Assembly: GCA_951406725.2 (NCBI GenBank)
Contig: OX597827.1
Span: 25,730,001-25,794,000 of the forward strand
Reading direction: 5' to 3'
Length of the DNA: 64,000 nt
Origin: Octopus vulgaris
Taxonomy: Eukaryota
Position 1 is the first letter of the stretch. The number at the start of each line of letters is the position of its first letter. The notes beneath the pieces are model-generated. The model saw only the letters and a list, made by a program, of their open reading frames with translations, had not been told where the DNA came from and did not search any database. This document shows positions 6,641 to 55,499 of the stretch, piece by piece. Position numbers and translations under genes: made by a program.

Positions 6641-6696
6641 TTTGCATATATCAATAATAGATATAATTCAAAATATGAAGTCGTAGAAATATTAAA

Positions 6697-7105
6697 GGCG
6701 GCGAGCTGGCAGAAACGTTAGCACGCCGGGCGAAATGCTTAGCAGTATTTCGCCTGTCTTTACGTTCTGAGTTCAAATTCCACCGAGATCGACTTTACCT
6801 TTCATCCTTTCGGGGTCGATTAAATAAGTACGATTTATGCACTGGGGTCGATATATTCGGCTTAATCCGTTTGTCTGTCCTTGTTTGTCCTCTGTGTGTT
6901 TAGCCCCTTATGGATAGTAAAGAAATAGGTATTTCGTCTGCTGTTACGTTCTGAATTGATATTTGGTCGACTTTGCCTTTCATCCTTTCGGGGTCGATAA
7001 ATTAAGTACCATTTACGCACTGGCGTCGATGTAGTCGACATTATCCCTTTGTCTCTACTTGCCCCTCCCCATGTTTAGCCCCTTGTGGGCAGTAAAGAAA
7101 TAAGA
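6697..7105 (+). mobile_element. SINE family A, multimeric copy
   Basis: Full head ggcggcgagctggcagaaacgttagcacgccggg, followed by two core+tail units. Confidence 0.88.
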
Positions 7106-8630: not shown

Positions 8631-10191
8631 CTAATAATTTTAATAAATAATACTTAGAAAAGTATATGAAACGTTGTATTATCTGATAAATTTTATTTTG
8701 TGACCATAATTATAATTTGCTCTTTGATAAGTTTAGCCGTAATAGAGTGTGAGTTAGATACACGAGTAAAGGAGCAATTATGCAGTTACTCAAGAGACAT
8801 GAATTTATAAAGGATAAGAATTTAATAGAAAATATGCGAACTGAGTGAGGACTAACATCAATTTTCATTGGCGGCTCTAATTTCTATAAAAAGTCTGTAG
8901 AGATACATTTAAAAAGCCTCTATCTGAGGTTGATTCAAACCTATAAAACCTCAGGCGCTGACTCGGACACTCATTAGAGTTACTGACATAGGTGTGTGGA
9001 TAAGAGGCTCGCTTTGTAACCACAAGGTCCCGGGTTCAATCCACTGCACTGTACCTTTTAACCATGGCTTTGGATCCAGTGATGGAAACTGAGTTTAAGC
9101 TCACCAGATGTGTGTGTGTGTTTGTTTGTGTTTATGTCTGTCCCTCCCATTGCATGAGCACAGGTGTTAGTTTGTTTACATCACCGTAGCTTAGCAGTTC
9201 AATAAAATAGTAAGATAGAATAAATACTAGGCTTACAAATAAGCGCTGGTGTGACTGCGTTCCACTAAACATTCCAAGACACTGCTCCATCATGGCCTCA
9301 GTCAAATAAACGAAACCAGTAAAACAGAAAGATGACCGAGCATGGTGTGATGGTAACCGCATTAGTGGAATAGTTTGTGCATTATTGAACTGAGATCGCA
9401 TTCTCTCTAAACCAAAATGAGTAGGCAAGCAAAAGAGCTGGGTTACTAGGGACATAGAACAAGAACACGTTTTTCAGCCTTTGTAGCTTGGAGGTGTACG
9501 TAATATTAAAGTAAGATATCTCTAATTTTATCTTTACGAAAACGCTAGTCTAACTAGTTATATTGGCTGATAGCAAATACCTAATGCACTGATAAGAAAA
9601 CTAAGAATCGAACTTTCAGAAGTGCTAAGTAATTAAAGGGAAAAATTAAAACTAATTAACGATAATTAAATTTGTGTTTAAAATAATTATCTTTTAATTA
9701 TCAATGCTATATTTATCGATTGAGGTGTTTTATAAAATGTTATTAATACTTAGATATAATGACTTTTCTGTGTAGGCAGCTACTGCATAATATGATGTAG
9801 CACATTGATCCGAATGCACTAAGATGGCAGTTTTAAACAAGGTGCAACCGAGTGGGGTCGAATCTTAAGTCTTACGTAGGAGTTTGTATATTACCCCACA
9901 CACATACACAGACACACACAAACACATGCATACATATGTATCTGTGTGCGTGTGTGAAGGCGCATGAACTTGTGATTAGAGTGCACCACTCAGGATCGCA
10001 AGGTTGTGATTTCCATTCCCATCGAGGCGGTGCGTTGTAATTGCTGCGCAAAACACTTCGTTTCACGTTGCTCCTGTTCAGTCAGTTGTGAAAGGATAAC
10101 TCTGTGACCAGTTCAGAGGTGATCCTATCTCGCCTGCCCAGCCAGTGGGGTGACGTCATTTGAAAACTGATACAATATGACGAAGTACAAA

Positions 10192-10755
10192 GGCGGCGAC
10201 CTGGCAGAAACGTTAGCACGCCGGGCGAAATGCGTAGCCGTATTTCGTCTGCCGTTACGTTCTGAGTTCAAATTCCGCCGAGGTCGACTTTGCCTTTCAT
10301 CCTTTCGGGGTCGATAAATTAAGTACCAATTACGTAATGGATTCGATATAATCGACTTAATCCCGTTGTCTGTCCTTGTTTGTCCCCTCAATGTTTAGCC
10401 CATTGTGGGCAGTAAAGAAATAGGTATTTAGTCTGCCGCTACGTTCTGAGTTCAAATTCCGCCGAGGTCGACTTTGCCTTTCATCCAATTGGGGTCGATG
10501 AATTAAGTACCAGTTACGCACTGGGGTCGATGTAATCGACTTAATCCGTCTGTCTGTCCTTGTTTGTCTCCTCTGTGTTTAGCCCCTTGTGAGTAGTAAA
10601 GAAATAGGTATTTCTGCGTTCAAATTCTTCCGAGGTCAACTTTGCCTGTAATCCTTTCGGGGTTGATAAATTAAGTACCCGTTGCGTACTGGTTCTGATT
10701 TAATCGACTGCTCGCCTCCCAAAAATTTTGGGCCTTGTGCCTAGAGTAGAATAGA
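10192..10755 (+). mobile_element. SINE family A, trimeric copy
   Basis: One head followed by three B-box/core/tail units that restart at ggtattt (~10422 and ~10607). Confidence 0.88.
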
Positions 10756-11093: not shown

Positions 11094-13297
11094 ATTTGTG
11101 TGTGTATCTATGTTTGTGTTTGTCCCTACCACCACTTGACAACCGATGTTAGCGGTTAGGCAAAACAGACCGATAGAATAAGTACTAGGCTTACAAAGAA
11201 TAAGACTTGGGGTCGATTTGTTCGACTAAAATCGATGCCCCAGCATGGCCGCAGTCAAATGACTGAAACAAATAAAAGAATATGTGTGTGTGTGATTTAT
11301 GCATTATTCTGGTTCATTTCAGAATTTCTTGTCAAGAGAGAAAGAGCCGGTTTCTAACCTAGATCTAAGGCTCACTCATTGGAATTTCAAAATCAAAAAC
11401 AGGGTGTTTTTGTATGTATGTATGTATGTATGTATGTATGTATGTATGTATGTATGTATGTATGTATGTATGTATGTATGTATGTATGAGCAGATTTGTA
11501 TGTTGTTTTACGTATGTATTCTCATGCATATAGTTGCATATCTAGACATGCTCATATATATTTAAAGGATAAACTTCTGGAAGGTTTTACAGGTTTTTTA
11601 CAGTTCCAATTATGGATTGGATCTGTAGTCTTCAAATCAGCTTTCTCCTTTCTTGTTTTGAGAAACCAAATTTCTCAGGACTGGTATTTATGCAGTGTGT
11701 TACATAACCCATTGCTCCAATAATTACAGATATAAACCTGAATTTGTAATCTACATAAAGTAACTGCAAATTCCTCAATAGGAATGTGCACAGTTTCTTT
11801 ATCGCAAATCATTGTATGTGAGTATGTATGGATATATGTATGTATGTCTTCAGACAGATTTCTTTCGAAATATTGTTATTCAAGCAGTAATACCAGTGTA
11901 GATTTTTGAATGTGTTCACCTGAAATCACCATTAAATCTTACACAAAACTTTTAAGTACCCTGGATCCTATTCTACACGTTGTTAACTCTTCTGGCATGT
12001 AAAAAGTGTTGATGAGTCATCGAGGGATTCCTAGTGTGATATTTTCGATACCAATGGGTTGTGTAGTAGCTGTCTTTGTTTAGTCCCTAATCAACCCCGA
12101 AAGGTCCTACGGTCGAAAGCTTTCAAAAATCAACGAATCCGTTTACTTCTCTTCAGATATTTTCTATACAACTGATATTAATATGTCAATACCGTTTTAA
12201 AAGTATTTCTGAGACCTGAAAATTCTATCCTTTTTACGGGTTAAACAACTGCATTAAGTTTTCGTTATTGGTTGAAGATAATTTCCATTGCTCAAAAACT
12301 TAACGACGTCACATAAATCGACAAGAATGAGTTGTTTAATTTTTTTCGTATGAGGTTGAGCTTCAGGCTTTTAACAATGCTTTGAGAATATTCATCGATG
12401 GGAATTACTACACTTCAGATCAGTGGTTACCAGACTGTTCCCCAGGGAGTGTCGTTTGTATTTACATAACATCATTTTGAAAGATTTGCCTGTATGTCCA
12501 GTCTTCGACTCATTTCAGTGACACCAAACAATCTCTTTGTGAACCATAACGGATTCGCGGACTAAGGTTAAAGAGCGCTGATGAGTTTTTAGGTATTTAC
12601 TGGAAGGAATAAGCAAAGCAATTAACAAAATGTAAGAAATTTGGTAGTAGTCCCACAGCGTGGCACCGTCGGCAAGATTGTTTTCTACTATAGTCTCGAG
12701 TCGATCATCCTATATTCTACCAATACCACTATCAACACTTACCTCTACCTTGGATTTTCTTTACCTCTTGGATACTTACCATTGGCTGCACCTCTCTTTC
12801 GCGGATCAAAGTGACTTTGCATTGATGTGAAATCCTTAAAAAATATACCACGACGTCTACACATTTCTCACCTTGAACTTTCAACCTTGAACTTGTTCGC
12901 ATAAACTGTCCCGTTTGTTGTATTTTTATTTCTTCTTATATTACCACTTTTTTTACATTCATTTCATGCTTCCCACATTTTCCTGAATTTTTGTTCTCCT
13001 TTCCGTCTTTCTTCCCTCTCTGGATGTCCATACTCCGTTTCCTCTGCCTGCACCCCCCTTTTTTTGCCTCCCCCTCTCTCTGCTTCCCTTCTTTCTTTCC
13101 CTTTTCCGTTTGCCCCGTCTTTTCTGCCCCTATCGCTTACTTATCTAGTTTTTTCATACGATTATTATTTTTTTGTTTTTTTGAACGTTTGTTTTTTCCC
13201 CTTTTTTCGCTATCCTTTTTTTCTATTTTTTTCATACGATAATTTTTGTTTTTTGTTTTTTTTGTTTTTTCGAACGTTTTTTTTCCGCTATCCCATC

Positions 13298-16205
13298 ATG
13301 CCGGATCCTAGGTCCTACCTCCTCACCCTCCATCACCGTTTGAAGGATCATCTACGTTCGCTTCCTGTATATTGCCTTCAGCCGTCCGTTAATCTCTCTC
13401 TACTTCTTTTTAAAAAAACCCGCTTCTCTAGCCATGTCTCTTTCCTAAGCCGCTGCCTACATCACCGACTCATCCCTAAAGGTTTCCGCCTCCACTTCCA
13501 CCCTGCTCTCCACTCGGATTCTTCCATCTTACCCATACTCCGCACCACATCTTACCGCCTTATGCGGGCCACCATTCGCTCCAATCTCTCCAAACTACAT
13601 GCCATCAACCGCCTTCTTCCTCCTGCTTTCTCCACCTTCTTCTCCTCTCTGCCGCCTCTCTATGCTCCAAACACGCTACGCTTCATTATCCATTTGAATC
13701 AACTCTTCCATCAATTTCTTTCTGATACCAAACTTCGTAAACTCCAATCACTCTTCCATTCCACCCTACCCGACGCCACTACCCCAACTCCTCCACCACC
13801 CTTCTCCCCTCCCGATAGGCTCCATCCACCCACACCTAACCCCACTGCCCCTCCCTACAACCCCTTCTCCCCTCCCGTTAGGCTCCATCCACCTACACCT
13901 AACCCTACTGCCCCGCCCAACCACCCCCCACACACCTCTCCAATCCCTCCCCCTCAGACCTCCCCGAGACCTACCACCCCTCCTACTTCTATTCCATCCA
14001 CCCCTTCTCCACTTCCGTCTGTTGTTACCATTCCCCCCGATCTTCCCCTCTCTGCGGCTGAACGCTCCGTCCTTGGTAGGGGTCTGCGTTTCATCCCCCT
14101 CACTCCATCCTGTAAGGAATTCCAGACGCGAGTTGATGTCCACAGCTTTGTGCGCCGTGTCCGGTTGGGTGCGCATTACCACGACTCGCCACCCACACCC
14201 AACGAAGAGGACGACTGCTTCACTGGCCTGGGCCGCCGACCATCCCCGTGGACGCCTGCCCCTGGCCAGATCCTAGCAGTGGATCTTTTCGCGGGCGCTT
14301 GTCAGCGTGCATTGGAGCGGTTCAACTTCTCCAGGCGCCAACGCCGCCTCAACATCTCCCCGGCTGAGCTCTTGGCTCTTCGTTCCCTCCAACGGCGCGC
14401 TGACATTATCATCAAACCGGCTGACAAGGGTGGAGCTGTAGTGGTGTGGCGCGCGGACCTCTATAGGGCCGAGGCTTTCCGCCAACTCAATGACACCTCC
14501 TTCTATTCCCCTTCTGCCCTCTAACCCCACACGTAGCTACCAACAGACGGTATCCTCTACTGTCCAAGACCTCATCTCGTCCTCCCGTCTCCCCCGCACC
14601 GCATCCAACCTAATTGTGCGAACCCCACGTACCCCCACCATTTACTTCCTCCCCAAAATCCACAAACCCAACAACCCTGGCCGCCCCATCGTCTCCGCCT
14701 GTAACTGCCCCACGGAGCTCATCTCTAAATACCTCGACCGTGTCCTTGCCCCCCTAGTGGCATCTCTTCCCTCCCACATCCACGATACCAACCATGCTCT
14801 CCGGCTTTTCAACTCTTTCTCCTTTCCTCCCGGCTCCTCCAAAATCCTTTTTACTATGGACATCCAAAGCCTCTATACTGTTATCCCTCACCACGAAGGA
14901 CTGCAGGCCCTTCGACACTTTCTTGACCTCCGCTCTAACCCTGTACCTGATACCTCCACACTCATTCGTCTGGCCGAACTTGTCCTTACTCTGAACTGCT
15001 TCTCGTTCGCGGGCGAGTTCTACCATCAGGTCTCGGGAGTGGCCATGGGAACGCGAATGGGCCCCAACTATGCGAACCTGTTCGTTGGCTATGTTGAGGC
15101 CCAAATATTCTCTAATTTCACTGGTCCCACTCCTGAACTATATGGTCGTTATATTGACGACATTATCGGTGCCACCTCACTCTCCCGCGAACATCTAGAT
15201 TCCTTCCTCTCTTTCGTCCAATCTTTCCATCCAGCCCTCCGCTTCACTTCCACTATCTCCAACACCTCTGTCTCCTTCCTCGACATTTCGGTTAGCATTC
15301 TTCACTCCACTCTTACCACCTCCATTCACTACAAACACACAGACTCACACTCATACCTCAACTTCTCTTCCTCCCACCCAGAACACACCAAGCTTTCCAT
15401 CCCCTATTCCCAATTCCTCCGTCTACGTAGGCTCTGTAGTGACGACCATGACTTTGAGACTCAGTCTCAACGTATGGCTCACCACTTCCCCTACGTGGAT
15501 ACCCCCTCACCACTATCCACACCGCCCTTGCCAGAGCACGGTCCGTGGACCGTGTATCTGCTCTCTCTCCCCGAACCCGCCCTGCAGTCTCCCGCCTCCC
15601 TTTTCCCCTCACTTACCACCCCACGACCCTACGTCTCCAACGCACCATTCTTCGAGCTTTCCGTCATCTCCACTCCGACCCGTCCACTTCACACCTCTTC
15701 CCTAACCGACCCCTCCCCTCTTTCAAACGAGCCCACAACCTTCGAGACCTTTTGGTCCATAGCTCCTTCCCTGACCCTACCTCCCAACCCGGCTCGTTCC
15801 CCTGCTCCCGCCCACGTTGCCGCACTTGCCCTTACCTCTCCAACACCACCCGCCTCACTAGCACCCACCATCGACCCTATCCCATCATCCACTCCTTCAC
15901 CTGCACCTCCAGCAATATTATCTATTGCATCTCTTGCTCTCTCTGCAATTCCTTGTACATCGGACAAACGGGACGCCGCTTGGCTGACCGGTTCGCGGAA
16001 CACCTTCGTGACATCCACCTTGCGAACGACACACCGGTCTCACGCCATTTCCGCTCCACCGGTCACTCCTTGCAACACCTATCTGTGTTCGGTTTGTCCT
16101 TACACAGAGGCCATCCGGATTCCCGTTTGCGCCGTGAACAGGAATTAATCTTCTCTCTTCGCTCTTATACGCCATTTGGTCTCAACTCTCCCCCTCCTCA
16201 TCTAA
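13298..16205 (+). pseudogene. PLE polyprotein: reverse transcriptase + Cys linker + GIY-YIG endonuclease (frameshifts at ~14510 and ~15490, probably also ~16192)
   Basis: Motifs SHVSFLSRCLHHRLIPKG, IKPADKGGAVVVW, YFLPKIHKPNNPGRPIVS, TMDIQSLYT, GVAMGTRMGPNYANLF, RYIDD, FLD, CSRPRCRTC, IIYCISCSLCNSLYIGQTGRRLADRFAEH, REQELI..L....PFGLN across ORFs 13064-14524, 14490-16148 and 15545-16546. ATG at 13298. Confidence 0.93.
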
Positions 16206-16552
16206 CCCCCCCCCTTTCCCCCCTCCTCACCTATCCTTTCTCCCCCCGACCCCTACTTCTTCAGTCCTTCATCCTTTCACCCCTACTCCCCTTCCCTTCT
16301 TCCCTCTTTCTCCCTCCCTCTTCCCCTTCCCTCTGCTCCCTCACTCCCTCTCTCCCCTTCTCTCTCCCCCTCTCCCTCTTTCCTCCTTCATCCCCCTCAT
16401 CCCCTTCCTTCTCCCCCATCCTCTCCTCTCCCCCCTTCTCCTCCCCATCTTCTTCCCCTCCCCTTCTCTCTCCCCCCTCTTCTCCCCTCCCCCTCTTCTC
16501 CTCACTACACCACATGACTTTACACATCACATCACATCACATATGATGTGCC

Positions 16553-16890
16553 ATACTAATACACACACCAACTAATACATACTAATACGTACTAATACAT
16601 ACTAGTACATACTAATACTTACACCAACCCTATACATACACACGTCCAGACCCCGCATACGCACTTATACTCTCTCTCACACACACACACACACCTATAC
16701 ATACTAATACGTACTAATACATACTAATACATACTAATACATACACCAACCCCATACATACGCACGTCCAGACCAATCTTACGCACTAATACTCTCTCAT
16801 ACACACACACACACACACACACACCCTTATACATACTAATACATACACCAACCCTATACATACACACATCCAGACCCCTCCCACGCACTT
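16553..16890 (+). repeat. Tandem repeats in the PLE 3' region
   Basis: (actaatacat/cgt) 10-mers plus about three longer units containing acaccaaccc...catac...gtccagacc. Confidence 0.85.
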
Positions 16891-17060
16891 TTAGCTGGTC
16901 CCTCAACCCATTTATCAACCCTATTATCTCCCCTTATTTCGCTCTCGCGTCTCATGTTTGATCTTTGACCTCTGGCCGAAATCAGATCGCCATGTTGATT
17001 CGTTAGCTACTGCACGCATTTTTTTCTCTCCTTCTTTCTGTGTTTTTCTCTCTCTGTGTA

Positions 17061-17098
17061 TCTTTCTGTTGAAGAGCGTAGGCTCGAAACGTTAAAGA
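17061..17098 (+). ncRNA. Minimal hammerhead ribozyme-like motif of the PLE pseudo-LTR (variant core)
   Basis: tcttt-CTGTTGA-a-gagc(gtag)gctc-GAAAC-GTT-aaaga: stem I tcttt/aaaga, stem II gagc/gctc, palindromic ACGT stem III. The core is CUGUUGA rather than CUGAnGA. Confidence 0.7.
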
Positions 17099-17301
17099 CT
17101 TGTTTTATTTATATTTCCTGAGCGCCATACTAATACAATTGTTCGTTTGTTTTCCACCTGCCTTCGTCTTTTGTTTATTTTCATAAAGCTTCCCGTTATA
17201 TATATATATACATACATATGGCCCCCACCACCCCACTACCGTTTGACAACCAGTGTTAGTGTGATTATGTCTCTGTAACTTAGCGGTTCGGCAAAAGAGT
17301 A

Positions 17302-17912
17302 AATTGTCATGCCGATACCTGCTCAGAGGCCTACGCAAAGTTGCAGAAAGTGTATGGGGAGGAGTGTATGAGCAGCACAGAAGAGTACGAGTGGTTCACA
17401 CGTTTCCAAGATGGCCGAAAAATGTCAATAACAGCGAAAGTTCTGGGAGACCCGCAACCAACAGGACTAAGAAAAATATCACAGATGTGCGTGAACTGTG
17501 ATGAGGAAATCGCCGAATCACCATTGGTGAGTAATCAGATGAAGTGCAGTATAGTTACGGTTCAGTTCAATCTATTATCAGTTAAGATTTGGGTATGAGA
17601 CATGTGTCTGCCAAGTTTGGGCCGAAACTGATTTCAGCTGACTTGATTGTGTCGAGAACGATGACAACTCTTTGAAAACTTTTCGCAGCCAAAATTTCAT
17701 ACAGGTCCTCTACTCAACTTTCTCTGTCATGATCAATGCGCCAGTCACACACTACGCACTTCCTTCCAAGCATTGCTGTAAACAGCTGAAGTGAGCTAGA
17801 ACGTTAACACTTAAAACGCCTGCATAGGTCAGTATGTGCCAAGCAGCTTTCCGCTGCGGGCTTTAGGCTCGTTTCTATGGCAACAGTCTCGATACTTATT
17901 GATCAGATAATA
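17302..17912 (+). mobile_element. Mariner-family internally deleted element (transposase HTH fragment)
   Basis: Translates DTCSEAYAKLQKVYGEECMSSTEEYEWFTRFQDGR, SGRPAT and DLGMRHVSAKFGPKL (mariner N-terminal HTH and WVPHEL-like linker). TIR-like end cagtctcgatacttattgatcag...ta. Confidence 0.8.
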
Positions 17913-23181: not shown

Positions 23182-23593
23182 CTTTCAGTAGTTTTATTTT
23201 TATAGCGTGCTTTCACTTCACTACCGAGCGCAGCTCTGTGTGCCTTGGGTATGTGCTGTGATTTGTTGTGATGCTCTGATGGTTATTATATGGAAAGTGT
23301 TCTGCGTAGGATGTGTGCAGTGCCTAGTAGTGCAAGTTTCTGTATGTTATATGTTTTTGTGTTATGTTTGTGTTTGTGTTATGTTTGTGTTATGTTATGG
23401 TGTTTTTGTTTTGTATTTGTCTGAATATTTTTTTATCATGCCTAATGCACCTATTATGATAGGAAATGTTTCTGTTTTTAGATTCCACATTCTGGTTACC
23501 TCTTTTTCCAGGTCTTTGTATTTTGAAAGTTTCTCCATTTCTTTTAGAGATACGTTGTCATCTGCCGGTATTGATACATCAATTAGAAAGCAT
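23181..23593 (-). mobile_element. 5'-truncated RLE-type non-LTR retrotransposon (R4/Dong-like) 3' end
   Basis: Minus-strand translation KCFLIDVSIPADDNVSLKEMEKLSKYKDLEKEVTRMWNLKTETFPIIIGALG matches the restriction-like endonuclease C-terminus. Bracketed on both sides by (TTA)n. Confidence 0.88.
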
Positions 23594-23611
23594 TTATTAT
23601 TATTATTATTA

Positions 23612-23743
<132 letters not shown>

Positions 23744-24099
23744 TTGATTGAGAGAACAATACATCCCAACAAATTACACTGGAGTACAAATATACGCACA
23801 CCAATATACCCACCTTGAGACCCGTCTGATAAAGGTCCATCAGGTACATGCATCACTGCCGTATGTGCGTGACATACTGATCTAATATCGAGACAAGCAA
23901 CGCATGACCTTGCAGGTGAGGCCCAGGTAGAATTTTTCAGTTTGAGTAGCCCATCCCGCTCAAAAGGTTCCTGACTAAGGGTTGTTTAAGGAATAAGACC
24001 AAAACATCCATGTTTCCAGAGGTGAATAATTCAAACCCGAAACAATCCTTCTCAACACATGGCTATGATGCTCACCCATTACTTCTACATGTTATCTCG

Positions 24100-45850: not shown

Positions 45851-47998
45851 TTTGATGGAGTATATAGCAGCAAAGTTAAAGAGGTTATTTTGGCTTCCTA
45901 GTTACACATACAAAGTGTTTCGACTCGTCACACCGTCTAGGAAAAAAGAAGCCCTTGAGAAATTTGTATAATGTGAAAGTGTCTCTTTGCATGTAGGATT
46001 TAATGGAAATGAGGATAAAGCGTACACCGATCCGTGCATTGTAAATTAGCGGGTGTTTCTCACTCTCTCTCTCTCTCATTCTCTCCATCTCTCCCTCTCT
46101 CACACACACACTGAGTGTATGTACTAGAGATACTGGTGGGAGGGAAAATGTCCGTTGTAACAGCAAGTGCTCTGTGAAGTTTAATTCAAAATGTGCAATA
46201 AATAGATGGCATAGTATACACGACAAATGAAAAGATACATCGAATAGATTTAGCTGGAGATGCTGTGAAGTGCTAGAGATGATATAACAACACCACTGAA
46301 GTTACACATTTTCTATCATTTAACAGTTTAAAAAAGCTGGCCGTGACCAACAGTATAAAACTGGTGAATTATAAACAATGCAACTAAGGGAATAATATTA
46401 TATTGTATTTACGCATTTCGTACAGTAGACCAGAATATAAACATATTTCAAATTCTATATATGTTAAATAAATATGGAATAGACTCTTTTACAAATGACA
46501 TATTTTATCATTGCTCTATAGAACATTCAAACCCCTTGTGTCTAGAATAGACAGAATTGTCTCCAGCTTAGAAATTCAATCTTCAACGTGCTGCTAAAGA
46601 ATTATTTGAAAATATCAACTGACTTTTTTTTCTCGTAATACCTTAAAGTTTAATTAATTCCAACGTGCCACATAACGTCTATATCATTTCCATTCTTTAT
46701 TATTTTATTATATTTTTCATATTGTTTCTAGTTATATGGTTTCCAAAATTTATCTGAAGGCATAAAGCACACAAAAGAAAATACTTCTAATCTATTTTTC
46801 AAGGAACCAATATCTTTTCGGAATGTAAATATTACAATATGACGACTACAAGAACAAAGAAAGAAAATTAAACAAAACCTATGCAACGAAATAAATAACT
46901 AGAAGAGTAATTATACATTTCTGGTGATAGTGTCAATGGTAATAGAAAAATGCGTCATTTAAATATTCTATAGAATATATATTAGTAAGAGGAACCAACA
47001 GAGTTGGAGATGCAACAGTTTCTTTTTTCAACTGATTAAATACGGAACTTTAGTCACATATTTACAGAAAACATATATATACTTACTTAAGTATACATGT
47101 ATATGTGTGTATATAAATACGTATGTATATATATATATATGTGTATGTGTGTGTGTGTGTATAACTATGTATGCATGTAAATATACATATATATATATAC
47201 ATTTATAAGCATATATATATATACAGGTATGTATAAATACACACACGCGCCTATATATATTTTCACTCCTTTACTCTTTTATTTGTTTCAGTCATTTCAT
47301 TGCGGCCATACAGGAGCATCGCCTTTAGTTAAACAAATCGACCCCAGGGCTCATCCTTTGTAAGCCTAGTACTTAATCTATCGGTCTCTTTTGCCGAATA
47401 GCTAATTTACGGAGATGTAAACACACCAGCATCGTTTGTCAAGCGAAGGTGTGCGTGTGTGTGGGTGAGGGGATAAACACAGACACGCAAACATGTACAC
47501 ACACACACATACACACATATATATATATATATACGGCGGGCTTCCTTCAGTTTCCGTCTCAACTCACAAAGCTTTGGTCCGCTCTAGGCTATAGTAAAAG
47601 ACACTTGTCCAAGGTGCCACGCAGTGGGACTGAACCCGGAACCATGTATATGTATGCATGTATGTATACATATATGTATATGTATGCATGTATATGTATA
47701 TGTATGCATGTATGTATACATGTATGTATACATATATGTATGCATGTATGTATACATACATACATATGTATGTATACATACATACATATATACATGTATG
47801 TATATATACATACATACATAGATACACATACACTTACACACACACACACACATGAATTTGAAAGCATATACTATCTGGACATAATAGATTTCCATCCGTT
47901 AGCATCAGAAACACGTACTTCGAGCAACAGAACTCTACGTACATAACACGATGCTTTTAATACAAATGTTTGTATACAGGAAAAACATAAAGCATCTT

Positions 47999-48215
47999 AA
48001 AGTGTACTAGCCATCTCAATATGGCTAACCACTAAGGGTGGGTGTTACTGTAGCTTTTAGCCCCAGGAGATCATCGTCTCCAGCTGGCTTTAGGCACACT
48101 TTCTGTGCCCTTATGGTATTTGCAAAGGGAGGTCATCCCTCTCTCGTAAACCTAAGCGACACGCACGGACTGCAGTTACTAGGTTTTTGCCTGTCTTCAG
48201 CGTACGGCAGTCACC
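47999..48215 (-). repeat. Hammerhead-containing terminal repeat, copy 1 (3' of the LINE, same sense as the LINE)
   Basis: Reverse complement of 53719-53934 with one 1-bp indel; its first 50 bp are also repeated directly at 53669-53718. Confidence 0.95.
48162..48206 (-). ncRNA. Type I minimal hammerhead ribozyme motif (degenerate copy)
   Basis: Minus strand: CGTACG-CTGAAGA-CAGG-caaaaa-CCTA-GTAAC-TGCA-GTC-CGTGCG. Stem I CGUACG/CGUGCG, intact CUGAAGA and GUC site, GAAA mutated to GUAA. Confidence 0.78.
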
Positions 48216-48476
48216 GGTTTACGATTAATTCTTTATTACGATTATAAAATCAGTACATAGAAGAACAATACAGGACATACATACAAAAAACAGTTAAGTG
48301 GTTCGTTTAAAAATTTCCACAATATATGGATTATTCATTATACAAAAAACTGTATTTAAATTGTCCTTTGCATTGACTAATATAACATTACATTAGATTG
48401 AAATCTTACCGATATATTTTAAACCCCGGCAACCTATAAAGCCTCGCAGCTTTCCTTTCCTCTTCTCCATCCATAG

Positions 48477-51400
48477 TTAAACTGGGTTTCTGACACCCAC
48501 CTTTTTCGCCACTTCCTTCCATCTTTTTTCATACACACCTCGTGGTAAGGTCTTCTTTTCCAGCCCCATTTTGCTCTTCAGATGATATCTGAAGTAAGTG
48601 AGCAAGCCGGGGCCTGAGACAAAGGATCCTATTGCGACTCCTTCCATTCTTGTACGCCACATGCATTCTTTTACTACTGCAACCGTGCAGTGAAAACATG
48701 CCTCACCTTCCTTCGAGAGTCCAGTTGGCGGTATCATCTTAATCATAGACTCAGCCGACAGCTGTACTCGTTCCAGATGTGATAACACGTGTTCTGCGTA
48801 ACTTATCAAGTCTGACAACTGCCGACAGTGTACAAAAGCGTGCTGGACGGTTTCATCGTCCAACCCGCATCTTGGACATGTCAGTGGCACTGAAATTCCG
48901 TGCCGCGATAACTTCTCGCGAACAGGTAAAGCATTCCTATAACACTGCCGGGCCAGGGATCTTTGGAAATTATCCAAATACCCCGTCCTGAAAGTCTTTT
49001 TAAACAGGTTGGTAAGCTGGTCCTCGTCGAACCCCAGAGCCCCTCCTAGGATGTCGTCGTTCTTTGCCTCTACCAGCCTGCTATAAAATACCGAGATGGT
49101 ATTTCCGCAGCCGACCTTGCCCGCCTTGTGGATCAGCGTGAGTGCCTGTCGGCGTCTCCTTTTACCATAAAGTCAGATTCCGTCTTTTGAAGCAACCGGG
49201 TTTAAAATTCACGAAGGAAGCCGGTCTCGGGAAAAATTCTCCTGCCAGCGGATTCCACACCTTATCACCCTCCAGGTGGTGCCAGAGATGCTTCAGCCTC
49301 AACGCATGTCTGCGCATCATCAACCAAGGCATTCCTAACCCACCCTTTAACGGTTCCTGGCAGCAAACGGAGCGCCTCACACGTGGCTTTCCTCCCTTCC
49401 ACAAAAAGCGGAAAAGGATTCGCTCCAACTTGCTAAGCCATGAATCGGGGCAAGGGACAACGGTCAGGCGGTAAGTGATTACAGATGCAATGAACATCTG
49501 TACCACCTCCGCCCTTCCTTTCAAGGACAGAAACCTTCCGGACCAGGTCCGTACTATGGCCTCCACCTTGTCCGTCACCTCACTCCAATTCCTCTCCGTT
49601 TGGGGGTCTGGCCCAAACCAAACTCCTAGCAACTTAACAGGACCATCTGTCCAGTGTCCCACGGCACTGGACGATATCGACTTGCTCCTCCAGGTGCCGA
49701 GGCACAAGCCAATCGACTTGTTCTTGTTAACTTTTGCTCCTGCCACCGCCTCGTATCCTCTGATAGCATCTTCTACACAAGGTAGCTGAGCCTCATTGGA
49801 CACGATGAGGGTGACGTCACCCGCATAAGCAGAAACCGTCCCCCCGCCTCCGATCTCATCCGGGTTACTTCCCAGCCTCTACAACTTTCGCAGCAATGGC
49901 TCGAGAGCCAACACGTACAAAAGTGATGACAAGGGGCACCCTTGACGAACTGAACATTCGATCGGAAACGGTTTCGTTAGGTAACCGTTTATCTGGACGG
50001 TGGACTTGATGCCGCTATACATAGCGGAGATCCACCCGCGAAATTCAGGGCCCAGTCCAGCCGCTTCGAGGACCGTCGCCAGGTACTTATGGTCTACCCT
50101 ATCAAAGCTTTACTTTGGTCTAAATGGACCATTACCCCGCCCTTGCCGGTTAATTTACCCACCCTATCTAAAGTGTAGCGTATAAGGTGAAGATTTCCTG
50201 GATCGACCTGCCTGGAATTGCACATGTCTGTGCTTTCCCTACAAGTTTCTCCACGACAGTCGTCAACCTTTTTGCCAACACCTTGGCCAAAATCTTTAAC
50301 TCTACATTAAGTAGAGTTATGGGCCTGTAATTACTAATGTTATCCCCCTTGCTCGGATCTTTCTGGATTAGCGTCACCACTCCTCGGCTTACAGAACTGG
50401 GAATTCTCCCGTTCTGCTGCCAGTTCGCGTAGACGCCTGCCAGTATTCCCCCGAACAAGTCCGGCATACTTTGATAAAACTCGTAGGGCAGACCATCCAA
50501 CCCCGGCGACTTCTCCCCGGCGCATCCGGCCAGTACCCCCTCTATCTCCGCGGGAGTGATCGCTCCTTCACAGCACTCCACCTCACGCCCCGAGAGCCGC
50601 GGTCCGCCGGCTAGGAAGTCCTTTAAGGCCCTCCTCCGCTCCAGCGACCCCCCCCCCCCCTGAACGCGCGGGCGAAATGCTGGTGAAGAAACTTTTGCAT
50701 CTTCTCCTGTCCATAGATCTTGTGTCCCTTTTCGTCAGTTAAAGACTTGATTGAAGCTTTGTTACCTCTCTGACTCTCCACTCGACGGGCCCATCCGGCA
50801 ACGTTAATACCTTCTCGTTTCCCTGCGCGTAGCTTAGCTCTAACTCTGCAACCTTCGTGTTTGGAGTTAAGGTGACGGTACAATACCGTCCTTGCCGCCA
50901 TCACTCCGGATGCAGAGCCAGATTCCATTGCCTCGTTTAGATTCTTAACTAAATCGTCCTCTATCCTAGACCTATCTAACCTTAGCTGATTGCTAAATCT
51001 AATGGACTCTGAACGAATGGGTCTTTTGAGGGAGTGCCACCATCTATTGTTAATGATGGTGCCACACAATGCCCTCTGTACTAACACCTTAATCCGGGTA
51101 CGGAAGTCTTCACAATTCAAAATAGACTTGTTCAGCTTCCAGTACCCGGGTCCCTGTCTATGGCACTTATCTAATTGCACCCTACAAGTCACAAATTTGT
51201 GATCCGTGTAAGGCACAATGTGAAACTGTGGACAACTAAACGTATCCTTATCTCTTTTCCTAACGAATATCCTATCTATATACGATCTGCGTGAGCCGTC
51301 ATTGTTACTCCACGTCCACTGTGGAACGATCGGCTCATCCAGTCGATAACGGTCTACTAGATTAAAGCTCTCTAGTAGACCCTTGAGGCTAGGGTTCCCC

Positions 51401-51864
51401 TTCCTATTGGTTGAGCCAACACTGTCGACCCGCGCTTCGAGGACAGTGTTAAAGTCCCCTACAAAGACTACCGTTTTCGACGTCACTAAAAAGTGCTCCA
51501 GATTCCGAAAAAACCCAGACTGCCTACACTCATTCGGAGCGTAGACAGCTACCAATCTGAAGGACTGTTTACCTACGTGGGTCACATCCAGAACGACCAG
51601 CCTGCCTTTTGGGTCCAGAAAGACAGTACTTACCTGCAAGTCCAAGCTCTTCCTGATAAGACTGCCACGCCCCTTCCTCCTCACGGCTAGGAGAAATAAA
51701 TTTCTCGAAACCATTTAGAAGAGGCGAGAACGCTTTTACCCGCTCATCTTGGACTCGGTTACAATTGCTTCGTCCACTCCGTGTGTCGTGAGGTCGTTCT
51801 GGAGAAAACTTTGTTTCCATTTCGACCCCATTCCACGCACATTCACACAAACCAGCTTTACCAT
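48477..51864 (-). pseudogene. Tx1-type ORF2: apurinic-like endonuclease, reverse transcriptase, C-terminal zinc finger
   Basis: ATG at 51864 gives MVKLVCVNVRG (APE start). Further motifs: VYAPN, VFVGDFN, SYIDRIF, TDHK, GPGYWKLN, KSPGLDGLPYEFY, NYRPITLLNVELKILAKVLA, VRQGCPLS (~49930), SAYAGDVT (~49820, YADD altered), GGLGMP, CPRCGLDDETVQHAFVHC. Multiple frameshifts. Confidence 0.93.
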
Positions 51865-51891
51865 TGTCGGGGAGAGAGAAAAAAAATAAAC

Positions 51892-53292
51892 TTACGGTTG
51901 GGACAGGGAGCATGACAGTTTAAATCTGCATGCTTCCCCTTCTTCCTCCCTTGTGGAAGTAGCTGCAGGGCTCTTAACCGGCGTTGCCATCGGGCTCTGG
52001 GTAGGTGTGGTTGCCGGGGTTATAGTAAGTTTGCCCTCCAGTATTTCGTTAGTTACGTCTCTGATAAGGTTATTTTTTAAATGTTCTGGGAGTGTTTTTT
52101 CCTTCCACTCGTCTTCCTTTATTTTTGCAAAACGAGTGGTCGACTTAGTGTTTGCAGACTTACTGAATAATTTCAGTTTTGAAAATTTAAAATACTTAAA
52201 CACTCTATCGTTCCTCTCGTCGAATGCTACAATCTTTTCATTTTTTTAAATCAATTTTTTCCAATCTTGTTTTATGGGGAGGGGCTTGGCGAACTGTGTT
52301 CCAATGAATACAGTGCCGTGGGGGTAGGGCTGGGGAATTTATTTGTATGTATTTCTGCGGTGTTTGCTGATTTTCTCTTTGTTTGGGGAGGAGAGTCCAG
52401 GGTATTTTCTTTTTTTCTTTTGTGTGTCACCTGTGTAAATTCCATTTGTTCATTTTTATCTTCCGTTTCGATTCACTTCCTTGTCGCAGTCTTGGGGTCT
52501 TTTTCCGCCTTTTCTTTTTCTGTGTTTGAAGCACTTTGAGGAGGGGCTTCGCTTTTTTTCTTTTTTTTTTATGCAGTTCGAGCGGACGTGAGCCTTTTCA
52601 CCACATTTGAAACACCTAGGTCTGCGCCCCTCCACTGACACTCTCATTGAAATTCCCTCCTCAATAAATACCCTATCGGGTAAGTTTTCTAGCACAATTA
52701 TTTTCTGCTTGAACGAGGAGTTCGAGCGCTTGTCCCTTCCAGTTTACCTCCTCTTTCCTTTTCATCTGCAGAATTGAGACTTTCTGCTCTACGTCGTGCA
52801 GAACCGCCGCTGCTACCCACATTATATCATATCCTCTTGGAATGTCTTCCACATATAGTTTCGCAGTTCTTTTGCCCATATAGGTAGGTAGTAACATGAT
52901 GTCCTCACTTTTTAAGGTCATCGATGAAATCTCTCTTGCCACATCAGCCGAGTCGAAATGTGCTTCAACGGTAGCGCTGCGGGCACCTCGACCGACGTAG
53001 CGAATTTTGCTCCACACCGGGGACAAGCACTTCTCTACTATTTCGTTCTTCACGTCCATTATTTTTTCTCTTTGTTACTGTAAACCTCGTACACGACTGT
53101 CTTGGCCTTTATTTCCTGTAATATTGCTTGCGGCGGTACCAGTTTTATTTCGTTGCCTTCCTTTTTGACCAAGTTCCGGTATTCGAACAACTGTTCTATT
53201 TTGAATTCCACTTCCGTTACGGTACCTTCTGTTCGCCTTTTCCCATCACAGGAAAGCCGCTCCTCGACTCCAAGTCGAACTCCATTTCTCAA
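51892..53292 (-). pseudogene. Tx1-type ORF1 (nucleic-acid binding, zinc knuckle), frameshifted
   Basis: Consecutive ORFs 53059-53292, 52673-53059, 52456-52695 (EGRRPRCFKCGEKAHVRSNC) and 51892-52203. Several breaks coincide with poly-T runs. The start codon is uncertain. Confidence 0.8.
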
Positions 53293-53668
53293 ATTATGAG
53301 AACCAATTTTTCAAGAAAAAAAAAAAAAAATTACCCTGAAGGTAATAACAATGTTTATACACAGAATTTTCAGCCCCGTAGGGCGAAAATTACTGTCACG
53401 CAACGGACAACTGTTCAATTCACGAGCAAACACAAACAACGACGAACAAAAAACGAACTCACTCAACAAAATAGGCAGCTAACTTCTCTATACGCAGATG
53501 AAAGAGGGGTCCCTAGACGAGTCAAAACACCGGTTTACGATGAAAGGAAAGCCTGTTTGCAAATACTTATGGGTTTTTCTAGTAACTTCCGTCACTGATT
53601 TCGAAAAACTGTCTGCAAGCAATAATAAATCTCTGAATGAGATGTAAACAGTAACCGCTCGACAACGT

Positions 53669-53718
53669 AAAGTATACTAGCCATCTCAATATGGCTAACC
53701 ACTAAGGGTGGGTGTTAC
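53669..53718 (-). repeat. 50-bp direct copy of the terminal repeat end, abutting the LINE 5' end
   Basis: aaagtatactagccatctcaatatggctaaccactaagggtgggtgttac equals 47999-48048 with one mismatch. Confidence 0.96.
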
Positions 53719-53934
53719 GGTGATTACCGTACGTTGACAAGAGGCAAATACCTCGAAACTGCAGTTCGTGCGTATCGCTTAGGTTTACGAGAGAGGAATA
53801 ACCTCCCTTTGCAAATACCATAGGGCACAGAAAGTGTGCCTAAAGCCAGCTGGAGACGATGATCTCTTGGGGCTAAAAGCTACAGTAACACCCACCCTTA
53901 GTGGTTAGCCATATTGAGATGGCCAGTATACTTT
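53719..53934 (+). repeat. Hammerhead-containing terminal repeat, inverted full copy
   Basis: ggtgattaccgtacg...gagatggccagtatacttt is the reverse complement of 47999-48215. Confidence 0.95.
53728..53772 (+). ncRNA. Type I minimal hammerhead ribozyme motif (degenerate copy)
   Basis: CGTACG-TTGACAA-GAGG-caaata-CCTC-GAAAC-TGCA-GTT-CGTGCG. Perfect stem II and GAAA, palindromic ACUGCAGU stem III, core CUGAnGA mutated to UUGACAA. Confidence 0.78.
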
Positions 53935-54336
53935 CGTAAAAGATGGAAGTATATAGCAAGAATGTTGCGAGTGAAAGAACCTATTTAAACGAGAATATAA
54001 AAAGGAGAAAGCAAAGTCTTCAGTGTGAGTATGTGGTTTGTGGGGTCAACCGCGTCCTCCGCTTCACTTTTTGTCAATCACTTATTCTCATTTAATTGTA
54101 TATATTTTAATTGTTTGTTTATTCATACGTTTCGTCTCATGCGATACCCTGACCTCAATGTTTATTTTGTCTGTCCCCTCTTTTTCTCAACCTTATGGTG
54201 AATAAAGAAATTCTCTCTCTCAGTCTCTTTGCCTATCCTTTCAACTACACCAGACGCCCCAGCACGAAACAGGTTTTGTGTCTCTCTCTGTCTTCCCCTC
54301 CACCTCTCACTTTTTCTTAATAGCACACCACAAAGC

Positions 54337-54424: not shown

Positions 54425-54800
54425 TGCCTGCAAGACCAAACCTGACGACATTAACCACATTATGTCCAGTTGTGAGAGAATGTCTTCCAGATGTTATCCT
54501 CCTATGACGTATGATGCAGTGGCTGAGACAGTTCAGAACAGGATCACAGAAGAAGGAAATGCCTGCAGACGATGTTGGCTATATTGAGACCGATGGGTCA
54601 AAAGAAGATTAGCGGAACTCAAAAACTGAAACAACTACATTCATGGACAAGTGATAAGGCGTTTGCCAATCGAGAACCCAAGATATACTTTCAGCTTTAT
54701 ATTTATCATTATTAGAGCAACAGGTCACAACCCCAACCTGTCTGGCGCAAAGTTTAGCTGAACCAGCTTCCTTGAGGAATGCACATAATTCCTTAATTTT
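54425..54800 (+). mobile_element. Degenerate RLE-type LINE fragment (CCHC region)
   Basis: Translates CKTKPDDINHIMSSCERMSSRCYPPMTYDAVAETV, similar to C..ETI.HI.S.C......Y..RHD.VA. Confidence 0.5.
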
Positions 54801-54804
54801 TAAT

Positions 54805-55031
54805 GCTTTATTGTCCACAGGGGGATAAGCATAGAGGAGACAAACAAGGACAGACAAATGGATTAAGTCGATTACATCGACTCCAGTGAGTAACTGGTAC
54901 TTATTTAATCGACCCCGAAACAATGAAAGGCAACGTCGACCTCGGCAGAATTAGAACTCAAAGCGTAACGGTAGACGAAATACCGCTAAGCATTTTGCCC
55001 CGCGTGCTAACGATTCTGCCGGCTCGCCGCC
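54805..55031 (-). mobile_element. SINE family A copy
   Basis: Reverse complement of the head, cgtgctaacgattctgccggctcgccgcc, plus the core. Other copies at 57838-58035(+), 58500-58705(-) and 38595-38680(-). Confidence 0.85.
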
Positions 55032-55499
55032 TAATAAACAACTGATCACGACATCTGGGACAATAACAAATCTGCACGATTTAAAGGATGGACAAAACAA
55101 GGTACTTCCCTTCACAATCTTGCTCCCAAACAGGGTCCGATCAAAATTTATTTTAAATTAAAAAGTGAAAGAGAATAACCAGTCACTCATCTGGGAAGCC
55201 CTTGAAATCAATGTTACCATGTGGGGACTATGTGTGACCCAGTGATCATAAAAAGACTGAAAGGAGATCTACAATAAAATAACGTTACTTAACACTTTGC
55301 AACTGGATCAGTGGAGGCAAAGATGCTTCTCATTTACTTGGCAATTTATGCAGCACATTGCAGAAATCACAATCTAAGTGTATGTTAAAGCAAACTCTTA
55401 CACTGTTGTACCATTGAATTACAAATAATGCTCATCTTCTATGCTCGGATGATTCCACAGCTTCCAAGAGTACAACTATTCGTCTTTGCTTAGATAAAA

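Follow-up and report, generated by a model that had tools for sequence, protein, structure and literature searches.

In the current analysis we have identified a small clade of LINEs of the L1 group, with an APE-type endonuclease and probably of the Tx1 clade, that inserts at one fixed position and in one orientation within hammerhead-bearing retrozymes of Octopus vulgaris; the probability of this reading is put at about 0.86. The analysis started from a stretch of 64,000 nucleotides of contig OX597827.1, referred to here as the window, and was extended to its own genome (2.8 Gb). A census of LINE 3' ends was made with an exact 27-mer from the 3' end of the LINE found in the window (family A), chosen without its flank. 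All 38 exact 3' ends, each of which was inspected, adjoin the same site. The census covers exact matches only, and the older copies among the 541 first-look LINE candidates lie outside it.

The minus strand of the locus in the window carries an inverted repeat copy, a partial direct copy, the LINE and a further repeat copy. This order had been given by the first-pass annotation and is retained here, with the drawn boundaries of the repeat and of the LINE 5' UTR corrected. The 217-bp repeat, previously taken as a full unit, is part of a unit that measures 357 nt from one cleavage position to the next in a natural dimer. The 141 bp at 53668-53528, previously assigned to the 5' UTR of the LINE, are retrozyme sequence and are contiguous with the 217-bp piece in 30 fetched loci.

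The inverted copy of the 3' part of the host (about 53718-53938, plus strand) is 92% identical over 218 nt to the 3' copy (48215-47999) and corresponds, within the host insertion, to the inverted 5' segment of Penelope type; its hammerhead core lies at 53734-53740 (TTGACAA) and 53755-53766 (GAAAC-TGCA-GTT). The features that follow are all on the minus strand. The direct host segment upstream of the insertion site (53542..53718) is made up of the end of one monomer half and the 127 nt preceding the site, and in loci free of the LINE it runs directly into the 217-bp part; the partial direct repeat copy (53721-53668) measures 54 nt at 96%. The LINE (48226..53527, 5302 bp) is flanked by a perfect 14-bp target-site duplication, ATCGTAAACCGGTG, at 53528..53541 and 48212..48225, which is absent from the first-pass annotation. 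The 3' duplication copy forms one arm of a predicted stem enclosing the hammerhead in the host RNA. The 3' host retrozyme copy (47998..48211) contains a hammerhead with the core CTGAAGA (48200-48194), a mutated GTAAC (48179-48175), a palindromic TGCA loop and a GTC triplet (48170-48168), which places the cleavage position 58 nt past the LINE end.

The LINE had been described as complete. It is full-length, with an AATAAA at 48237-48232 and the 3' end AATAAAGAATTA without poly(A), but it is inactivated, both ORFs being broken. ORF1 (51893..53285, end approximate) has one zinc knuckle, and an ORF1 of about 475 aa is free of stops in other family-A copies. ORF2 (48477..51864) comprises an APE endonuclease, a reverse transcriptase and a zf-RVT domain; it has frameshifts and stops in the window copy, the first 957 aa being recovered as six tblastn pieces with four stops. 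A CCHC zinc knuckle in ORF1 is a feature of the Tx1 clade. The Pfam zf-CCHC family matches ORF1 of another family-A copy (L117) with 21.1 bits against a cut-off of 20.8, and gives no match in the partial ORF1 frame of the related family B. Fold prediction of ORF1 without an alignment was uninformative (pLDDT 38).

ORF2 matches PF03372, PF00078 and PF13966 of Pfam. Its best relative of solved structure is human L1 ORF2p (E 2e-63), followed at a distance by R2 (E 2e-22); L1 endonuclease structures match ORF2, and those of the R1 clade are absent among the matches listed. On these sequence comparisons the LINE is assigned to the L1 group of APE non-LTR retrotransposons. Among named proteins its nearest relatives belong to Octopus bimaculoides and Argonauta hians, and no Tx1-named relative was obtained from protein searches, cluster look-up or the Atlas. 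The available text of PMC4494074 sets the threshold of target preference for Tx1 elements at over 20% of flanks. This threshold for a multicopy target is exceeded by family A (38/38) and family B (13/14), and the Tx1-clade label of the LINE is considered likely.

The host sequence is present in a large number of copies, with 2327 first-look candidates for the 217-bp piece in the same genome. It is a short tandem unit devoid of ORFs with one type I hammerhead per unit, and its circular monomer has a predicted fold of -90.6 kcal/mol (z -2.6). By these features of unit and hammerhead, all read from sequence, the host matches the metazoan non-LTR retrozymes. The type I hammerhead reported in the repeat by the first-pass annotation is borne out, as the minimal motif is present and covariation between copies is seen both in the stems and at the 3-8 pair. 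Position 3-8 is a tertiary pair of the hammerhead; in 68 distinct segments it is C-G in 41, U-A in 17 and U-G in 10, with C-A, which was permitted by the pattern used to find them, in none. In 12 copies picked for diversity, 91% of the cells are paired, four pairs have changed on both sides and none of 500 shuffles scored as high; the copies are related, hence the shuffle result is not a probability. A palindromic stem III and loop is seen in 62 of the 68 segments, and 66 carry the triplet GUC. Palindromic hammerhead loops favour dimeric cleavage. Dimeric motifs are mentioned in the abstract of PMC7229834.

Comparison with Rfam at the gathering score gave zero matches within the window. A search of 13 loci up to E 1 gave a single sub-threshold hammerhead match, to HH9 in another copy (35.1 bits versus 52, E 3.5e-5), amid microsatellite noise. 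In the window the 3' hammerhead is probably dead in cis, judging from the change of its core from GAAA to GTAA, and the inverted copy has GUU as its triplet.

Inverted and tandem copies of the Penelope/retrozyme type had been described for the locus. This geometry is indeed present; both host orientations are found in seven of 27 LINE-free loci, so that it belongs to the host and not to the LINE. Host terminal ends run into (TA)n in 22 of 58 cases. In most loci the identity between the inverted and 3' host copies is 93-99%, which places them in the age class of the burst of LINE copies. No ORF with Penelope reverse transcriptase and GIY-YIG has been found between the repeats, the enclosed ORFs being of the APE/L1 type; one fetched locus has a Penelope reverse transcriptase about 600 bp from the host on the opposite strand. 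A second retrozyme family, with a unit of about 345 nt, different hammerhead stems and 2469 first-look candidates, has equal tandem and inverted geometry (L164:1300-2800, L162:5900-7100) and is 54% alike to the first in a global alignment.

A Penelope-type element is also encoded in the window itself (13298-16200, plus strand), with a reverse transcriptase followed by a frameshifted frame carrying what we take to be a GIY-YIG-like motif. It was considered as an evident partner of the retrozyme and set aside, having no significant sequence in common with it (best match 22 nt, E 0.07); no hammerhead was found by pattern in window 11500-17500. Among the other repeats of the window, a dispersed repeat of about 240 bp occurs in three copies (6696-6927, 10191-10431 and 54792-55032) that are 83-84% alike. 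A fragment at 23395-23853 (minus strand), broken by an AAT microsatellite, resembles the restriction-like endonuclease found at the C terminus of Dong/R4-type elements.

The 38 family-A ends are distributed as 33 on the first retrozyme, three on the 14-mer followed by another LINE, and two on the second retrozyme family, where they sit at the homologous position. At the opposite end of the element, a variant of the 14-mer precedes all 30 LINE 5' ends fetched from the best 40. From 41 long loci, seven were dropped on account of lacking a LINE, being nested or missing an end, leaving 34 two-ended copies. The paired 14-mers of these copies are identical in 21, differ by one base in nine and by more in four. 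The duplication follows the local variant of the host, of which there are at least five. The distance from the LINE end to the cleavage triplet is 52-61 nt in 29 of the 34 copies, and the orientation of the LINE in its host is identical in every copy examined.

The insertion site lies within one arm of a stem, the partner arm of which covaries in several host subfamilies. The 14-mer itself is poorly conserved between the host families, so it is not evident that simple reading of sequence by the endonuclease would suffice, and upstream motifs common to both hosts, or structure, may contribute to the choice of site. At one locus (L108) the 5' and 3' hosts are from different subfamilies, and a microhomology with the target marks the point at which the LINE has lost its 3' tip; this locus is probably a recombinant. 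A 5.6-kb direct repeat on C8 (L129), considered as a further filled site, turned out to be a plain local duplication.

At least two LINE families share the site, and probably a third as well. Family B has an amino-acid identity of 72-89% with family A and is its sister (SH-aLRT 100) in a quick tree of reverse transcriptases in which all relatives are unnamed. Its 14 exact 3' ends include ten on the retrozyme, three on the 14-mer followed by another LINE and one off-target (L184). Families A and B are stacked at the site in the orders A-B, B-A and A-A. A third type of ORF1 (family C) follows the site in both of its two exact genome matches, a weak indication since each was first found via family B. 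Family D, with about 60% reverse transcriptase identity and 2831 candidates, is sister to A and B together in the same quick tree and prefers another target. About one third of 30 family-D ends (L186-L215) lie directly in an element of about 190 bp that ends in a hairpin and CTAGT, which we take to be a non-autonomous Helitron. Around nine of the 30 are joined via a non-coding insert of about 300 bp, usually followed by the same hairpin-CTAGT target, and a few precede the 5' ends of other LINEs.

The first-pass annotation had left the choice between a target-specific LINE of L1/Tx1 type in a hammerhead retrozyme and a composite in which LINE and repeat move together. The former is upheld by the fixed site, by the duplication that tracks the host and by the stacking, and its predictions of 5'-truncated copies ending at the site and of many LINE-free host copies are both borne out. 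Among 32 copies (the two-ended copies minus two with another LINE behind), the LINE has diverged by a mean of 3.1% (2.1-4.5%) with a star-like tree. The host flanks of the same copies form deep clades and have diverged by 18% downstream and by 22% upstream, the upstream figure being raised by a few short hosts. In several cases the two most closely related LINEs occupy hosts that are 30% apart. Of eight truncated copies inspected, three keep the duplication (L047, L048, L164), two have the upstream host with a small deletion (L038, L162) and three have neither upstream direct host nor 5' duplication (L163, L168, L169). The contrast of about 3% LINE divergence with about 20% host divergence, the local variant in the duplication and the truncated copies with duplication therefore indicate independent site-specific insertions, and independent insertion is strongly supported as the main route.

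Upstream and downstream host distances are correlated (Mantel r 0.61). LINE and host distances also show a weak but significant correlation (r 0.16-0.30, p 0.0005-0.03), which pure independence does not predict and which counts against site-specific insertion as the sole process. Such a signal fits composite copying, in which a joint transcript of LINE and host would be the template for Penelope machinery acting in trans. This is improbable and would be a minor route at most. The three truncated copies lacking upstream host resemble 5'-truncated composites, one of them beginning at a TA repeat and one adjoining an inverted host end; the age class common to host copies and LINE burst would also agree, as would L093, which has a rare dead hammerhead core in both outer host copies and a wild-type core in the inner one. 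However, the 5' target deletions with microhomology in L038 and L162 indicate that a missing upstream host need not mean a composite. No parent-daughter pair is seen, the smallest LINE distance being 2.1%; rare alleles in common number at most four per pair (mean 0.39), and the LINEs carried by the hosts nearest to that of L169 show 23-31 differences from its LINE, where the median is 24. The trees are largely incongruent, the geometry occurs in LINE-free loci, and the three truncated copies lacking upstream host show no link to full copies in the nearest hosts. A one-off chance insertion, which the first-pass annotation had named as a possible outcome, or an assembly artefact would draw on the high repeat density of the window and nothing else, and is refuted by the 38 of 38 independent loci at one site in 2.8 Gb. 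Four public runs under four organism codes, none on record as RNA, also have LINE and host sequence in their contigs, which show presence only; the monomer-to-monomer joint found in all four occurs in genomic tandems too.

A different matter is whether the inserted LINE makes use of the hammerhead of its host. The LINE would be co-transcribed from the retrozyme and the RNA cut by the host hammerhead 58 nt past the LINE end, an addition to site-specific insertion that we hold only tentatively. It is similarly doubtful that a second cut would be made about 313 nt before the LINE start where an upstream hammerhead is present, and rather unlikely that the target-derived tail would pair with nicked DNA, fix the junction and bias new copies towards donor-like hosts. 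The near-constant spacing to the cleavage position, the constant orientation and the weak LINE-host correlation on both flanks are consistent with these steps, and R2 and L1Tc are described in the available text of PMC6765202 as leaving co-transcripts by their own ribozymes. In one family-B locus (L183) the host ends exactly at the GTC triplet and is joined to a family-C 5' UTR, a single case that may represent a deletion or the footprint of a cleaved RNA. Against the hammerhead, the 3' ends of families A, B and D lie just a few bases past AATAAA and lack poly(A), and the target of D is free of ribozymes, so the A-less end needs no hammerhead; the upstream direct hammerhead is kept in only about five of about 38 long loci.

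The window provides one hint of such use in that its 3' host differs from the inverted copy at 10 of 49 positions up to the cleavage position and at 6 of 168 beyond (Fisher p 4e-4). Five of 18 rows of the test were spurious alignments and were set aside; among the 13 loci in which the second copy is real, this skewed pattern is seen in one, and no general excess of differences between duplication and cleavage position was found outside the window. Conversion by a locus at a distance of 3 Mb would account for the pattern equally well. The dead-core hammerhead variant occurs three times in the genome versus 368 wild-type cores, and its other two copies are both in L093, which likewise carries a LINE and lies 3 Mb from the window locus on the same contig. 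This proximity favours gene conversion for the transfer of the dead core, with a read-through tail as the alternative. That a ribozyme-less LINE lineage has fixed its site so that the target hammerhead processes its RNA, as a hyperparasite borrowing the catalyst of its host, is put forward as a conjecture of low likelihood; the retrozyme would be highly expressed, the target tail would home to matching copies, and the site would be read by position or structure rather than as a fixed 14-mer.

Site-specific insertion would proceed by target-primed reverse transcription at one position and in one orientation in non-autonomous hammerhead retrozymes. The host is a tandem unit of about 357 nt in thousands of copies with Penelope-type insertion (partial tandems, inverted 5' copy and TA-repeat ends), moved presumably by Penelope proteins, and could serve as a harmless, multicopy and possibly transcribed landing site. 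The duplication suggests that cutting by the LINE is staggered by 14 bp and takes place just 5' of the hammerhead. Such cuts would duplicate 14 bp and so regenerate the site, at which more LINEs of the same or sister families then stack. Specificity is probably set mainly by the endonuclease, as is described for Tx1 and R1 elements in the available texts of PMC4494074 and PMC1919474. A transcript running a short way into the target beyond AATAAA may account for the precise A-less 3' junction.

Transposon-targeting LINEs of the Tx1 clade are already known. According to the available text of PMC4494074, Tx1L of Xenopus laevis targets Tx1D, a non-autonomous piggyBac element, and the crocodilian Tx1-Mar, Tx1-9_AMi and Tx1-8_Crp have Mariner, Harbinger and LTR targets. 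The octopus LINE resembles them in having two ORFs and an APE endonuclease, in its fixed site within a multicopy mobile element, in the comparable length of its duplication and in the tandem stacking of copies around that duplication (PMC4494074). It differs in that its target is a non-coding, ribozyme-bearing Penelope-type retroelement and its site lies 58 nt from a cleavage position, positionally conserved across hosts about 54% alike. The legend of Fig. 3 in the same paper includes an unnamed target for Tx1 ('Sat, satellites'). Keno, Kibi, Koshi and further Tx1 families directed to U2 snRNA genes or microsatellites are alike in near-absolute specificity, low copy number and a multicopy target (PMC4494074, available text), whereas the octopus target is a selfish catalytic RNA unit and not an RNA gene or simple repeat.

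The host is similar to metazoan non-LTR retrozymes, which have a tandem unit of 150-450 bp with a type I hammerhead (350-390 bp in mussel) and for which Penelope elements are proposed as movers. The accessible portions of the two sources (PMC7229834; bioRxiv 10.64898/2026.07.22.740005) mention neither an octopus retrozyme nor a LINE inserted in a retrozyme. The host, and not the LINE, is similar to Penelope-like elements in its partial tandem, inverted 5'-truncated copy, microsatellite bias and hammerhead (bioRxiv 10.1101/2021.04.23.441226, available part), but the octopus element has no GIY-YIG/Penelope reverse transcriptase and the enclosed ORFs are of L1 type. With R2 and L1Tc it would share the use of a small ribozyme to free its RNA from a co-transcript; theirs is an HDV-like ribozyme of their own at the 5' end of the element, whereas the octopus ribozyme belongs to the target, lies 3' of the LINE and is of putative use (PMC6765202, available text). 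No LINE targeting a hammerhead retrozyme or pLTR was found in the full-text literature, a scope that excludes Repbase reports and most subscription papers. A 2026 repeat annotation of octopus lists 13 recently active L1-Tx1 families, with no mention of hammerheads or retrozymes in its available text (PMC13282606).

A catalytic non-coding retroelement would represent a new class of target for site-specific APE LINEs, and the arrangement would amount to a chain of parasites in three layers, namely Penelope machinery, retrozyme and LINE. The position of the site is kept across hosts that are about 54% alike, and a sister lineage with about 60% reverse transcriptase identity prefers a Helitron-like element. 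Together these form a compact natural series on how APE endonucleases and RNA tails may set specificity, a question that bears on LINE-based targeted integration. Consensus models of a 'LINE with terminal repeats' in octopod genomes may likewise represent a target together with its insert.
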